Shown here in pieces: positions 1,501-29,283 of a DNA stretch of 64,000 bases. The position numbers and the translations under genes are program-made. The stretch comes from a virus. Below the pieces are notes generated by a model. That model was given only the letters and a program-made list of their open reading frames with translations, did not search any database and had not been told where the DNA came from. The stretch covers positions 97,130 to 161,129 of IMG/VR virus record IMGVR_UViG_3300014325_000010; one strand, given 5' to 3'. Numbering within the stretch: the first letter of the stretch is position 1; each line of letters starts with the position of its first letter.

Positions 1501-1569
1501 TTCCAATCTATTGGAATCAGTAATCCAGACGTTTTTAGAGCGTATCTAGCTTAACGAAACCCGGCGGCG

Positions 1570-1592
1570 CGCGGTAAAATACCCTTACCGCG
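1570..1592 (+). promoter_or_regulatory. Upstream GC-stem hairpin with a TAAAATAC loop (family of about 9)
   Basis: cgcggtaa-aataccc-ttaccgcg. Related copies: 12546-12567, 16232-16250, 17025-17046, 20141-20176, about 25060-25090 and about 29070-29100. Confidence 0.45.
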
Positions 1593-1593
1593 T

Positions 1594-1613
1594 AAAGCGC
1601 CTTACGGCGCTTT
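1594..1613 (+). terminator. Intrinsic-terminator-like hairpin
   Basis: aaagcgcc-ttac-ggcgcttt followed by attgat. Confidence 0.45.
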
Positions 1614-1654
1614 ATTGATCCGATATGCTATCGGATCGAATAAGGGAGGCTGAT

Positions 1655-1903
1655 ATGCCGAGCTACTACGTAATGTGGACCGTGAAAGACTCGAACCCCG
1701 ACGCCCCGCCCTTTAAAGGGCACCTCCTCGACAATCCCAACCTACGGCAAACGACTATTGAAACCGACTCTCCTGCTGGAGTCATCGAGGCCATCGAAGA
1801 GGGCAGCGGGCGTGCTGAGGGAGCGGTGGTCGTTCAGATCTCCGAGATGATCGATATCGACATGGCCGAAGCGCGCGCGGAATACGAAGCCGAACTGGCG
1901 TAA
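1655..1903 (+). CDS. hypothetical protein
   Basis: Start chosen at the ATG after RBS aagggagg; upstream hairpin gatccgata-tgc-tatcggatc. Confidence 0.45.
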   Translation: MPSYYVMWTVKDSNPDAPPFKGHLLDNPNLRQTTIETDSPAGVIEAIEEGSGRAEGAVVVQISEMIDIDMAEARAEYEAELA

Positions 1904-1952
1904 CACTCTGAAGCCCGCGGTCCTCAAAGATCGTGGGCTTCACAATGAAACT
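1897..1952 (+). repeat. 56-bp direct repeat copy 1 containing an 11-bp-stem hairpin (1909-1942)
   Basis: ggcgtaacactctgaagcccgcggtcctcaaagatcgtgggcttcacaatgaaact. Differs from copy 2 at 2 positions; one turns a G-C pair into a G-U pair. Confidence 0.7.
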
Positions 1953-1964
1953 AAGGATTAAATC

Positions 1965-26022: not shown

Positions 26023-26057
26023 TCCAGATCAATTAGTTCAACCGGAAACTTAATCTC

Positions 26058-26384
26058 ATGGTGAAAGCATTTCGCATAATCCATATCGACACGGACCAAG
26101 TGATTGGTAGGGAACACCCACCAGAAGAAACAGATATTGGGTTGATCGTTGTTCCTCTCCAATTGGACGTCACTTATTGTGATGACGTGGCTGGTACCAT
26201 GGAGCCCGTAATCTCAAAAGATGGAGACGTGTTGGAAGAAGCTCTTGATCTCCTACTCAAAGATCAAGGTGAAGACGATACGCAACATATCGAAACGTGC
26301 TACACCTGCCTGACACCGGACGGCCGCATTGTCCAACTCATGGATTTTGAACTCGAGTCAATCCTCGAAGGAGATCTTCTATGA
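26058..26384 (+). CDS. hypothetical acidic protein
   Basis: 108-aa ORF. Confidence 0.4.
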   Translation: MVKAFRIIHIDTDQVIGREHPPEETDIGLIVVPLQLDVTYCDDVAGTMEPVISKDGDVLEEALDLLLKDQGEDDTQHIETCYTCLTPDGRIVQLMDFELESILEGDLL

Positions 26385-26728
26385 GACAACCGGATAAATC
26401 CTGGCTCGCAAGTAAATTAATCGAGTCAAAGATTCCCGAACACCTTCATGATGGACTTATTGCTTACATCATGGACGGACGTCCAACAGGACACTTTCTT
26501 CGAGCGGTGCTCGAAAATAACTTAATTGGGGCGTGCGGTCGAGCAGATGAAACTCTCAAATACCGGCTTTACGACCTCATTTTCTTTCTGACCAACTACG
26601 CTCCGAGACATTGTTGGACTTCTCCAGCTAATGTTGATTATTGGATGGATAATGGTGGTTACAACGGTTTATATGGTGTGACTAACATTGTTCCTCCTTT
26701 GGAGGAGGGTGACAAAATATTGCCATGA
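26381..26728 (+). CDS. hypothetical protein
   Basis: 115-aa ORF. Confidence 0.4.
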   Translation: MRQPDKSWLASKLIESKIPEHLHDGLIAYIMDGRPTGHFLRAVLENNLIGACGRADETLKYRLYDLIFFLTNYAPRHCWTSPANVDYWMDNGGYNGLYGVTNIVPPLEEGDKILP

Positions 26729-26789
26729 TTTTCTACCACAATAGCGTGTGACCTTATACGACATTTAATACAGAAGAGGGAGAATTGCA

Positions 26790-27131
26790 GTGAAGCTGAT
26801 GTTTCGGTTTTTGAAGCCCGATGAGAATCGTCCAATCAAGAAGTACGCGGAGTGTGCGGTAGAATTCACGGAGGGGTTTATGAAGGGAACCCGTCTGATT
26901 GGATTCACTGTCAACGAAAACGCGGAAGGACTCTACGTAGGTTTTCCATCCTACATCCATAAGCGGGGTCCAAACGACACTGTCGTGTTCGATTTCCTTT
27001 GGTCAATCGAACCACAGGCGCTGGATAGATTGGAAACCTACATCCTCGACGAATTCGAGCGGTTGAGTGAGCAACACATGCCGGCACCGAAGACAATCAT
27101 TCGGGTGGAACCGCCGGCCACGTTGTTTTAG
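26790..27131 (+). CDS. hypothetical protein
   Basis: 113-aa ORF. Confidence 0.4.
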   Translation: MKLMFRFLKPDENRPIKKYAECAVEFTEGFMKGTRLIGFTVNENAEGLYVGFPSYIHKRGPNDTVVFDFLWSIEPQALDRLETYILDEFERLSEQHMPAPKTIIRVEPPATLF

Positions 27132-27459
27132 CCACATAAAGTGTTAGTGACACATAACGGGAGCATTTGCATCCAGGATCCTTGAAAGTATCAGACTAGG
27201 CGAGTGAATCATCCCAGTCGTCAGCACCAATTGATCGGATTGAGTCCAAAGGATAGAGTGCGCCACTGTACCCGAACGTTAGGAGAACGGAAATGTTGTT
27301 GGTAGTGTTGGCTATCGTAAAGGTAGTTTGCGGAATCGCGTGCATAGGTTTGGTCCTCTACGATTCCGTTACTGCAAGATAGTTCAGACAGCGTATTCGT
27401 AAGTAACAAGTTTAGCGTTCGACCATCTATAACATCCCCATCTAATTAGGAGTATCTAA

Positions 27460-28473
27460 ATGAGCGATGAATACGAAGGTGTGGAATCTGTCAAGCGACT
27501 GTCACGCGATCTAAAGAAAGCCTCGCTGACATTGTCGCCTGACCAAGCACGATTCTTGGTTGGCCAATATTACACGATGCAAGCCAATCGTATTCGTGCA
27601 GACAATCAAGTTCGTTCGTTGAAGGAAAACGAAGAACCACATGCGGCTATCGAGTGGTTGTCCAGCCAGAACGACGTCTTGGAACGTTCAATCAAAAACG
27701 CTCTCGATTCGTTTAGCAATGCCAGCGTACTCGGACGTTGGGCGAAATCAATTTGTGGAATTGGTCCAGTGATCACTGCTGGATTTCTCGCCCACATCTC
27801 GATGGAACCGTGGCGTTGTCACATTTCGAGGAACGATATCACCAAGAAGCCTTGTAACGCCAAAGATCCACATGGCCCGTTGTGTCGAATCGAGCAAATT
27901 CGAACGGTTGGTCATATTTGGCGATTTGCCGGTTTGGATCCGACGGTAATTTGGGAACCCAAAACCCGCCGACCGTGGAACGCAGATTTAAAGACATTGA
28001 CATGGAAACTTGGTGAATCATTTGTCAAGGTCTCAACAAATGACGCTGATTTTTATGGTCACCTTTTGGTTGAACGCAAGAACTACGAGATAGCGAACAA
28101 TTTCTCAGGAAAACTTGTTCAACAAGCAATCGACAAACTCGCGAAATACAAAATCGGTAAGGATACAGATGCCTATGCGTGGTACAGCGGCTGCTTGACG
28201 CCAGCACAAGCACTCGAAATTGCTGCGGCACCGGCTGCCAAACGACTCGGTATGGTAAAAAAGATGGCTGGAATACCGGGTTCGGGTTTGCAAATGTTGC
28301 CTCCAGCACATATCCACGCTCGCGCCAAACGTTGGGCAGTCAAACTGTTCCTATCGCATTACCACGCAGTGGCGCACATGGAATATTTTCACGAACCAGC
28401 TCCAAAGCCGTATATCTTGACACATGATCACGGCCACACTCACGAAATCGTCTGCCCAAATTGGCCTTTCTGA
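27460..28473 (+). CDS. helix-hairpin-helix DNA-binding protein; weak IS110-type (Transposase_20-like) C-terminal similarity, no DEDD N-terminus seen
   Basis: SICGIGPVITAGFLAHI and RFAGLDP. Confidence 0.3.
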   Translation: MSDEYEGVESVKRLSRDLKKASLTLSPDQARFLVGQYYTMQANRIRADNQVRSLKENEEPHAAIEWLSSQNDVLERSIKNALDSFSNASVLGRWAKSICGIGPVITAGFLAHISMEPWRCHISRNDITKKPCNAKDPHGPLCRIEQIRTVGHIWRFAGLDPTVIWEPKTRRPWNADLKTLTWKLGESFVKVSTNDADFYGHLLVERKNYEIANNFSGKLVQQAIDKLAKYKIGKDTDAYAWYSGCLTPAQALEIAAAPAAKRLGMVKKMAGIPGSGLQMLPPAHIHARAKRWAVKLFLSHYHAVAHMEYFHEPAPKPYILTHDHGHTHEIVCPNWPF

Positions 28474-29283
28474 TTGAATCAATTTAATTAGATCAAATTG
28501 ATTCAATAAGCGAGTTAGTCACAGAACATGAGAAAAGTCTCAGACTAAAGGAACGAGTCGTCCAAGGGAAGAGTTCCAGATTCGAAGAACGAATCAATAA
28601 GTTTGATAGCAACATACCGTTAGAGTGAACCACAAGCAGGAGAGCACCTTCTGGCGGGAGTAAATCATTTCTACAACGAGTTCCACAGCATTAGAATAAA
28701 ACATCCATAATGACTATACCAAAATCAGGTTTGAATCATTCGTCCTGTGAGTACCATATAAATGGAATGAATCAGTCACTTTGTTAGCAACATCTGCTAG
28801 GTATGAAACACTAGGCCCGATAGTCTCAGATACAATCTTTGAATCACTTCATCACGTTAGCACCATAGCTGCAGAATAAATCGAGAAGATTAACAGTTAC
28901 AGAAATCGGGAATGAACCAAGAAGTGGAATAGTAACACCTATAGCGAGTAAATCAAGAAATCAAATAGTTTCAAAGGATTAGAATGAGACAGTGGCATAA
29001 GAAAGCAACATATAGTTAGATTGTCCGACGCTAAAAAGACGCTAAATAGAAATAACGGACGGTTTTACGGCGCTATATAATAGCCTAACGGCGCGCGGTA
29101 CGCGGGTGAAATAACTCGAGAAGAAAAGACCGAGTGGTCGTGAAATTTCATCAGCGAACTTTCTATCATCAGAGCTAAAATTTTGTCGTTTTCTACTAGC
29201 TTTTGGAACGGCGCTTTAGTAAACTTTTCGAGTCAGCCTTACGCGGTCATAACGGTCGCGAAGATTACTGAGGAGACTAGAAA

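Follow-up and report, generated by a model that had tools for sequence, protein, structure and literature searches.

Comparison With Described Promoter Systems

In T4-like phages, elements known as PeSLs combine sigma70-like promoters with GC-rich stem-loops and mediate modular shuffling (PMC2839356, PMC4122927). Here we analyzed a recurrent motif, TAAAATAC(CC)TTAG, in a stretch of 64,000 nucleotides of phage DNA (positions 97,130 to 161,129 of the IMG/VR virus record IMGVR_UViG_3300014325_000010; hereafter, the window). Its sequence context makes it probable that this motif is the core of a ~100-130 bp promoter cassette that is repeated at the heads of transcription units along the rightward (+ strand) early/replication arm of the genome. 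The closest described analogue of the whole cassette is the PeSL. Both are short composite cassettes repeated among the small early or orphan genes of a large lytic phage, both appear to join a sigma70-like promoter to GC-rich stem-loop sequence, and both have an A/T-rich upstream region. In the genome studied here we found ten copies, with terminator-like hairpins upstream and GC-rich hairpins in the leaders. However, PeSLs have the full E. coli consensus including the -35 element, and their GGGG...CCCC stem-loop forms a terminator of its own next to the promoter, whereas the cassettes have at most a weak -35, with phased GAC boxes in its place, and GC-rich segments that flank the -10 and open the leader.

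Pho-box promoters activated by PhoB and the CII-dependent promoters of phage lambda have a good -10, a poor -35 and about one-turn direct repeats at the -35. The cassettes share with them the good -10 and poor -35, as well as 11-bp-phased direct repeats that abut or overlap the -35 position. Nevertheless, the repeated box found here, aGACGnTAaat, matches neither the Pho box nor the TTGC repeats of CII-dependent promoters, and a cassette may have up to four boxes.

A Motif Family at the Heads of Gene Blocks

The motif had been reported at seven positions of the window, and six of these form one real motif family. On the + strand, TAAAATAC occurs at 1575, 12552, 17040 and 20146, TAGAATAG at 25072 and TATAATAG at 29076 (sites are named here by the position of the hexamer T). 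The seventh, at 16232-16257 (TAAATAAC), does not belong to the family, as it lacks TAnAAT as well as upstream boxes, is not matched by the hidden Markov model (HMM) described below, and is a GC hairpin located after a stop codon. The GC-rich surroundings noted in the original prediction were confirmed. The occurrence of TAAAATAC alone is not significant (5 in the window versus 2.2 expected), yet intergenic DNA, which makes up 11% of the window, holds all four + strand copies. The 18-mer GTAAAATACCCTTAGCGG, with at most 3 mismatches, was found twice versus 0.01 times expected, and TAAAATA is the top enriched intergenic 7-mer in the window. An independent repeat search clustered positions 1565, 12542 and 20136 as one family (D7), the copies of which are ~70-80% identical across ~26 nt.

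We took into consideration sequences beyond the window. A 112-kb ENA contig shares an identical stretch with it, and walking left gave 19.3 kb of additional DNA from the same genome (L008 and L138; L008 10001 corresponds to window position 63), so that the window and these ~20 kb together cover ~84 kb of a 161-kb genome. Four extra copies were found there, at L138 7322, L138 8324, L008 992 and L008 8605, with the copy at L138 7322 preceding the first + strand gene after a strand-divergent region. Three related metagenomic phages (L001, L002 and L005), reached via homologs of a window ATPase at 54-70% identity, together have ten copies. The aligned set therefore comprises 20 sites from four phage genomes, ten from this genome and ten from the relatives; a weak site at L001 9917 was excluded.

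An HMM trained solely on the ten sites of the relatives had its top window matches at 12552, 29076, 20146, 1575 and 17040. In 74 kb, these five of the six window sites and L008 8605 were the top matches, all on the + strand and with no false positives above them; the site at 25072 was missed. A model scan of the window from 30 to 64 kb gave no cassette copy. Orthologous positions are occupied as well: a site precedes the primase gene in all four genomes (here, L001, L002 and L005), follows the ATPase gene in three (here, L002 and L005), and precedes the ortholog of the unit at 29076, where the corresponding site is L002 20419 and GCTATATAATAGCC is common to both. All 20 sites are intergenic and co-oriented with the genes, they often follow terminator-like hairpins, and they are located at the heads of gene blocks. 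The ten copies of this genome lie within a ~42-kb region of small open reading frames (ORFs). With Rfam 15, only six tRNAs matched in the whole window and no cassette matched above the gathering score; a literature search on TAAAATAC was uninformative.

Shared Anatomy of the Cassettes

In the alignment, the hexamer core TA.AAT (T1, A2, A4, A5 and T6) is invariant in all 20 sites, while the third position is A, T or G and the base following the hexamer is usually A. The third position is the least conserved one in sigma70 -10 elements. A sigma70-type promoter has a -10 resembling TATAAT in which T-12, A-11 and T-7 are conserved, a -35 resembling TTGACA at 16-18 bp before it, and a purine start about 7 nt (6-9) beyond the -10. 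In the cassettes, a GC-rich discriminator is followed by a TA. At the sequence level, its A is placed at +7 from the hexamer in most cases (13 of the 20 sites), and the full range is +6 to +9. The bases after this TA are GC-rich, often reading ACGGCGTA. Upstream of the hexamer, 15 of the 20 sites have one to four GAC boxes, with an 11-mer consensus of about t(t/c)aGACGnTAaat. When measured from the first hexamer T, GAC(G/T/C) boxes are found at -59, -48, -37/-38 and -26/-27, and 32 of the 37 boxes fall within 2 of the 11 phases (binomial p 3e-19), that is, they are phased at 11 bp. Upstream of 141 control TAnAAT sites, the same count shows no preferred phase.

The proximal box overlaps the place of a -35 element, its -35-like TTGAC lying 22 nt from the -10. 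Other -35-like sequences are TTTACn, which four of the 20 sites and the uncounted weak site L001 9917 have 17 nt before the hexamer, and TTAACG, which lies 16 bp upstream of the -10 at 17040 and 18 bp upstream at 1575; elsewhere the match to a -35 is poor. A simple sigma70 consensus scan showed no overall enrichment and flagged only 1575 and 17040, both with weak -35 hexamers. Compared with dinucleotide shuffles, the leaders predicted for these sites have a greater tendency to fold over +1 to +42 (mean z -0.89, combined Z -3.8), and in most sites the leader hairpin begins at nt 1-6.

Most likely, then, the TAAAATAC(CC)TTAG that was described as a hairpin loop comprises a putative -10, discriminator and start site, and the stems are the GC-rich sequence on either side of it. 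The cassettes are best read as candidate sigma70-type promoters that lack a canonical -35 and would give rise to mRNAs with 5′ stem-loops. In the order 5′ to 3′, such a promoter would consist of the phased boxes, a short GC-rich segment, TAnAAT, the GC-rich discriminator, the TA start, the GC-rich leader, a Shine-Dalgarno (SD) sequence and the start codon. The -10 would be recognized by a holoenzyme of the sigma70 family, in the simplest case that of the host, and a protein bound to the phased boxes on one helix face could make up for the weak or absent -35, much as a class II activator does or as happens at a Pho box. Alternatively, intrinsic curvature of the boxes may take the place of such a protein. 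The 5′-terminal stem-loop would stabilize or regulate the mRNA. A plain promoter-like sequence, TTAACT-18-TATAAT, precedes another gene of this phage, which fits the use of a host-type holoenzyme. That the motifs could be promoters had been proposed in the original prediction, and the anatomy supports this: the sites are intergenic, on the gene strand, at block heads, near terminator-like hairpins and at conserved orthologous positions.

The cassette can serve as a promoter model, and thereby as a map of transcription units, for uncultivated phages of ~161 kb, a lineage that has no close isolate. The promoter family itself is most likely fairly ordinary, though newly described. Its sole unusual element is the 11-bp-phased GAC array that replaces the -35, which points to an identifiable phage or host activator; the phased boxes and the leader stem-loop, the functions of which we infer here from sequence, are the features worth following. 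There is also a caution for motif reading, as an AT-only -10 between GC-rich flanks yields apparent hairpins with a conserved loop.

The six window cassettes and the GC hairpin that is not a member are located as follows.

1526-1654, + strand: cassette 1; GAC box at 1528; putative -10 TAAAAT at 1575-1580; predicted +1 A at 1587; SD GGGAGG; ATG at 1655
12501-12613, + strand: cassette 2; GAC boxes at 12503 and 12514; putative -10 TAAAAT at 12552-12557; predicted +1 A at 12564; ATG at 12614
16230-16258, + strand: GC hairpin, not a cassette; arms GCCCGCGT / ACGCGGGC, loop AAATA; 24 nt after the stop codon of ORF 15858-16214
17000-17100, + strand: cassette 3; GAC boxes at 17002, 17013 and 17023; putative -10 TAAAAT at 17040-17045; predicted +1 A at 17051; ATG at 17101
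20096-20197, + strand: cassette 4; GAC boxes at 20098 and 20119; putative -10 TAAAAT at 20146-20151; predicted +1 A at 20158; probable TTG start at 20198
25035-25187, + strand: cassette 5; no GAC boxes; putative -10 TAGAAT at 25072-25077 with TGc directly before it; +1 uncertain (A at 25086); ATG at 25188
29025-29283, + strand: cassette 6; GAC boxes at 29027, 29038 and 29058; putative -10 TATAAT at 29076-29081; predicted +1 A at 29087; ATG at 29284

The distance to the start codon had been given as about 40-60 nt, which did not hold uniformly: measured from the hexamer, in site order, it is 80, 62, 61, 52, 116 and 208 nt. The leader of cassette 1 holds the hairpin AAAGCGCC-TTAC-GGCGCTTT. Cassette 2 lies upstream of a D5-type primase/helicase gene and its leader starts with ACGGCGTA, while cassette 4 lies downstream of an AAA ATPase gene and the terminator-like hairpin of that gene (20020-20050). 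Cassette 5, the weakest member, has a long, GC-rich and structured leader, and the leader of cassette 6 spans ~200 nt. The GC hairpin at 16230-16258 is followed by a second, AT-rich hairpin, and is probably a transcript-end or attenuator structure. A search for homologs of the 236-aa protein encoded downstream of 17040 returned only the protein itself.

In many sites the leader has GCGTAAA and then the SD context TTCGAGAAGG, as seen for cassettes 2 and 3. This context does not distinguish the cassettes, since TTCGAG is in excess on both strands throughout the genome. In the window, TTCGAG and CTCGAA are ~5-fold over-represented (72 and 79 copies, versus ~14 expected), TCGAGR octamers are 6-9-fold above the first-order expectation in coding and non-coding sequence alike, and TCGA is 2-fold enriched. 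A codon-pair effect and a modification or recognition motif are both possibilities for this excess.

Other ways of reading the boxes were considered and rejected. The combination GAC...CGT(A/C) does not fit a -35/-10 pair for an ECF sigma factor, as the spacing is 13 nt and not 16-17, it occurs in three sites only, and the invariant TAAAAT would be left unexplained. Replication-origin iterons were rejected because the arrays lie at ten gene starts, with a spacing to a -10-like hexamer that is always the same. A permissive regular-expression search for tandem boxes in the rest of the genome lacked the specificity to be of use.

Hairpins Around the Hexamer and Alternative Explanations

The original prediction described hairpins with differing stems and a conserved loop, which suggests compensatory change, but none was seen in flank-swap and shuffle tests. 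Good stems enclosing the hexamer are found within the window only at 1575 (8 bp) and 20146 (9 bp), and DNA folding of the 56-nt site regions gave z values of -2.1 to +0.7, ordinary for their composition. Pairing of cognate flanks did not exceed that obtained after swapping flanks among the sites (permutation p 0.55 and 0.37), and the hexamer was enclosed in the fold in 17 of the 20 real sites versus 77% of the chimeras. Predicted loops range from 7 to 18 nt, with registers that vary between sites. We conclude that the hairpins around the hexamer are largely a by-product of shared GC-rich flanks rather than a site-specific selected structure. The related proposal of a 5′ untranslated region regulatory structure stands in part: the GC-rich leader downstream of the predicted start is structured, but a selected hairpin around TAAAATA was not supported.

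The N4-like hairpin promoter, which had been named for comparison, fails on its defining features. The promoters of the N4 virion RNA polymerase have a GC-rich heptamer centred at -11 with a 5-7 bp stem and a 3-nt loop, and need A or G at -11, G at -10, G at -8 and C at +1 (PMC4496689). The cassettes share with N4 that inverted arms can be traced on either side of a conserved element that precedes the start, within a phage early region. However, the centre of the cassettes is AT-only (TAAAAT), the loops are longer, the registers differ and the stem is not maintained in relatives. The cassettes have A or T at the N4-specific positions and a predicted +1 A. Within the ~84 kb, no gene for a giant virion RNA polymerase was found, the largest ORF (872 aa) being vault-protein-like.

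We considered two further roles that would add to a promoter. One is that the dyad seen at the consensus level, CGCnGTAA-N7-TTACnGCG, is functional, either as the operator of a dimeric repressor (GTAA-N7-TTAC) over the -10 and start or as a DNA cruciform or RNA hairpin; we regard this as quite unlikely. In the 18-site alignment, the 1575 register is the best of 190 eight-pair helices (0.56 versus a mean of 0.24, z 3.6), and its 66.7% pairing exceeds the 28-47% of registers slid by 1-3 columns. Stems are perfect or near-perfect at 1575, 20146 and L001 7544 (7/8), and the half-sites GTAA and TTAC lie 11 bp apart, centre to centre. On the other hand, the same 66.7% of paired cells for the 8-bp stem of 1575 (columns 8-15 with 25-33) compares with 63.4% in column-preserving shuffles, cognate pairing equals that of chimeras with no site-specific compensation, and folding energies are usual for the composition. 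A fixed 3-nt-loop mini-palindrome around AAA was likewise not significant. The inner pairs of the dyad are the G-TA of the putative -10 and the TA-C of the start site, and in L002 and L005 only 3-5 of the 8 pairs are kept, mostly these G-TA/TA-C pairs that the -10 and start already explain. The other role is that of a recombination module, in which repetition of the cassettes, as in PeSLs, would drive the shuffling of early-region genes and the promoter function would be partial. The precedent of PeSLs (PMC2839356, PMC4122927), about ten repeats in a region of small orphan ORFs, the usual adjacency of terminator-like hairpins, and the persistence of cassettes where the gene content between the primase and ATPase anchors differs (window phage, L002 and L005) are consistent with it. 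We consider it very unlikely as the main role, as ~70-80% identity over ~26 nt is short for homologous recombination and the idea adds to the promoter explanation without replacing it.

A different question is which polymerase would read the cassettes. The original prediction named a non-sigma70 (phage) RNA polymerase as a possibility, and a phage-encoded polymerase or sigma-like factor, for example of the jumbo-phage virion multisubunit type, could account for the very strong conservation of an AT-only core of 7-8 nt that lacks a canonical -35, and for conservation that continues through the start site to about +10. Jumbo-phage early promoters have a conserved AT-rich sequence of ~10 nt at about -10 (PMC7598289), and the cassettes resemble them in having a strongly conserved AT-rich motif of ~8-10 nt near -10 before early operons, identified solely from sequence. 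This resemblance, an 8-nt core here, is unspecific in that a sigma70 -10 would show it as well: the motif cannot be told apart from such a -10, its hexamer pattern being exactly sigma70-like, and neither phased boxes nor GC-rich flanks are described for the jumbo-phage promoters. Phased upstream boxes are not a feature of described T7-type promoters either. T7-type promoters are conserved contiguously over ~23 bp, from -17 to +6 (PMC4496689), and keep a fixed spacing to the start, whereas here only the hexamer and the next A are invariant or nearly so. The spacing from the hexamer to the TA start is 6-9 nt, and this flexibility, a variation of 3 nt, argues against a rigid single-subunit polymerase promoter. 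Searches with Pfam and PHROG of the 116 window ORFs and the left 20 kb found no RNA polymerase, no split beta/beta′-like genes and no complete sigma factor. The gene for a 185-aa protein with a sigma70 region-4-like helix-turn-helix (HTH) lies 3 kb to the left of the first cassette, but the protein cannot read a -10 because it has only the N-terminal HTH (residues 7-40) and no sigma region 2. Taking these points together, we consider a phage-encoded polymerase or sigma-like factor unlikely.

Several observations weigh against sigma70-type promoters nonetheless. The -35 is poor at most sites, and the proximal TTGAC, at 22 nt, is too far for a canonical sigma70 contact. A4, A5 and the A after the hexamer vary less than they do in ordinary sigma70 promoters and conservation reaches about +10, both of which a dedicated phage factor could explain, and such a polymerase or sigma factor could be encoded in the ~77 kb of the genome beyond the ~84 kb searched. 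Five sites have no GAC box, including 25072, L138 8324, L001 3895 and L001 7544, although in the last two AGAT-type repeats occupy the phase of the GAC boxes. The statistics overstate the independence of the sites, which are partly orthologous or paralogous, and we infer both the start site and the polymerase of the cassettes.

Candidate Regulators and Genomic Context

The 185-aa HTH protein is encoded at L138 3808-4365 (+ strand) and scores 27.2 bits in Pfam against a cutoff of 24.1. A receiver-domain (response-regulator) protein of ~201 aa, at L138 1-462 (- strand), adjoins the large terminase subunit; no DNA-binding domain was found in the part seen. Both genes lie ~16-19 kb left of the window start, and both proteins are possible regulators of the cassettes. 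It is highly improbable, in our view, that the HTH protein reads the phased -35-like boxes (t-t/a-GAC-g/t) in replacement of the sigma70 -35 contact while the GC-clamped GTAA-N7-TTAC dyad provides a second, supercoil-sensitive or repressor-mediated control. If true, it would represent a strategy not described before by which a phage constructs its early and middle promoters and sets their timing, and an activator that proved to be the nearby sigma-region-4-like protein would itself be of real mechanistic interest.

Almost all of the 116 ORFs of the window are on the + strand. They include replication-type genes (Prim-Pol, the D5-type primase/helicase, two AAA ATPases and a family A DNA polymerase), and the window has six tRNAs. 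The 19.3 kb to the left comprise a strand-switch region, the gene for the large terminase subunit (- strand), and those for the 185-aa HTH and receiver-domain proteins. Megablast with 20 kb gave no match to isolate phages. An identical copy of the ATPase was found on a 161,202-bp JGI contig. A protein-based search of IMG/VR with the ATPase returned no relatives, and the pattern AGACGTTTTTAGA-N(10-40)-GTAAAATAC had zero matches there. The pattern TAAAATANNCN{1,3}TACGGCGTA matched 7 IMG/VR loci and at least 119 loci of the metagenome collection, which are not relatives; these were taken as chance matches because, among the matches listed, the HMM found no second or strong cassette.

Further features were observed in the regions around the cassettes. 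The strand-divergent region at L138 4360-7400, between the - strand (terminase) and + strand arms, has abundant GTAACG/CGTTAC and TAACGCCCTAATAC repeats, with CCGTAGGAAA present three times in tandem. At L008 2940-5270, ~2.3 kb are nearly gene-free just upstream of a 773-aa Prim-Pol/VapE-like gene; there we found dense iteron-like GGTTTACC/GGTAAACC repeats (~3540-3850) and several copies of a ~100-nt unit made up of two perfect hairpins (ACTGATCCGGTTTGTGATTTGGATC...). This region is possibly a replication origin. In the window, a transposase-like ORF at 27460-28473 (phrog_4285, E 3e-39) precedes a segment of ~800 nt (28474-29283) that has no convincing ORF and ends at cassette 6, and the layout of L002, with a 339-aa gene, a gap and then site 20419, matches that of 27460-29283. 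The largest ORF seen, of 872 aa (30779-33397, + strand), matches the Pfam families MVP_shoulder (E 4e-28) and Vault_3, is major-vault-protein-like with no PHROG match, and sits within the phage tRNA cluster.

Other Structured Intergenic Elements

AT-rich, perfectly palindromic hairpins without T-tracts occur in intergenic regions, often just upstream of a cassette, and may be terminators or processing sites. One group, AATTTGATTAGATCAAATT (family D15), is found at 15-33, 12472-12490 and 28481-28499; another has arms such as GATTGAAATG...CATTTCAATC, and the positions 16260-16290, 18225-18255 and 55845-55885 belong to the same list. A 56-nt direct repeat (family D4, 96% identity) at 1897-1952 and 2750-2805 contains the GC hairpin GAAGCCCGCGG...CGCGGGCTTC; the two copies lie directly after two consecutive genes and bracket ORF 1965-2756. 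A 36-nt element with 81% identity between its copies at 18313-18348 and 48890-48925 contains TACGGGCCACCAGTC(C/A)AGGCTG and has no Rfam match. It is located in long GC-rich 5′ regions, before the AAA ATPase gene at 18435 and before the gene at 49005, and may be a conserved leader structure. Finally, tRNA-like or repeated structured segments that were not called by ARAGORN or Rfam are present at 29681-30013, 36340-36830, 39537-39579 and 41480-41600. They hold the repeat families D2, D6, D9 and D11 and include GACGGGATTAAATGAGGTGG...CCTCAGCC three times, and AACTTGAC has four + strand copies between 29.8 and 36.8 kb.

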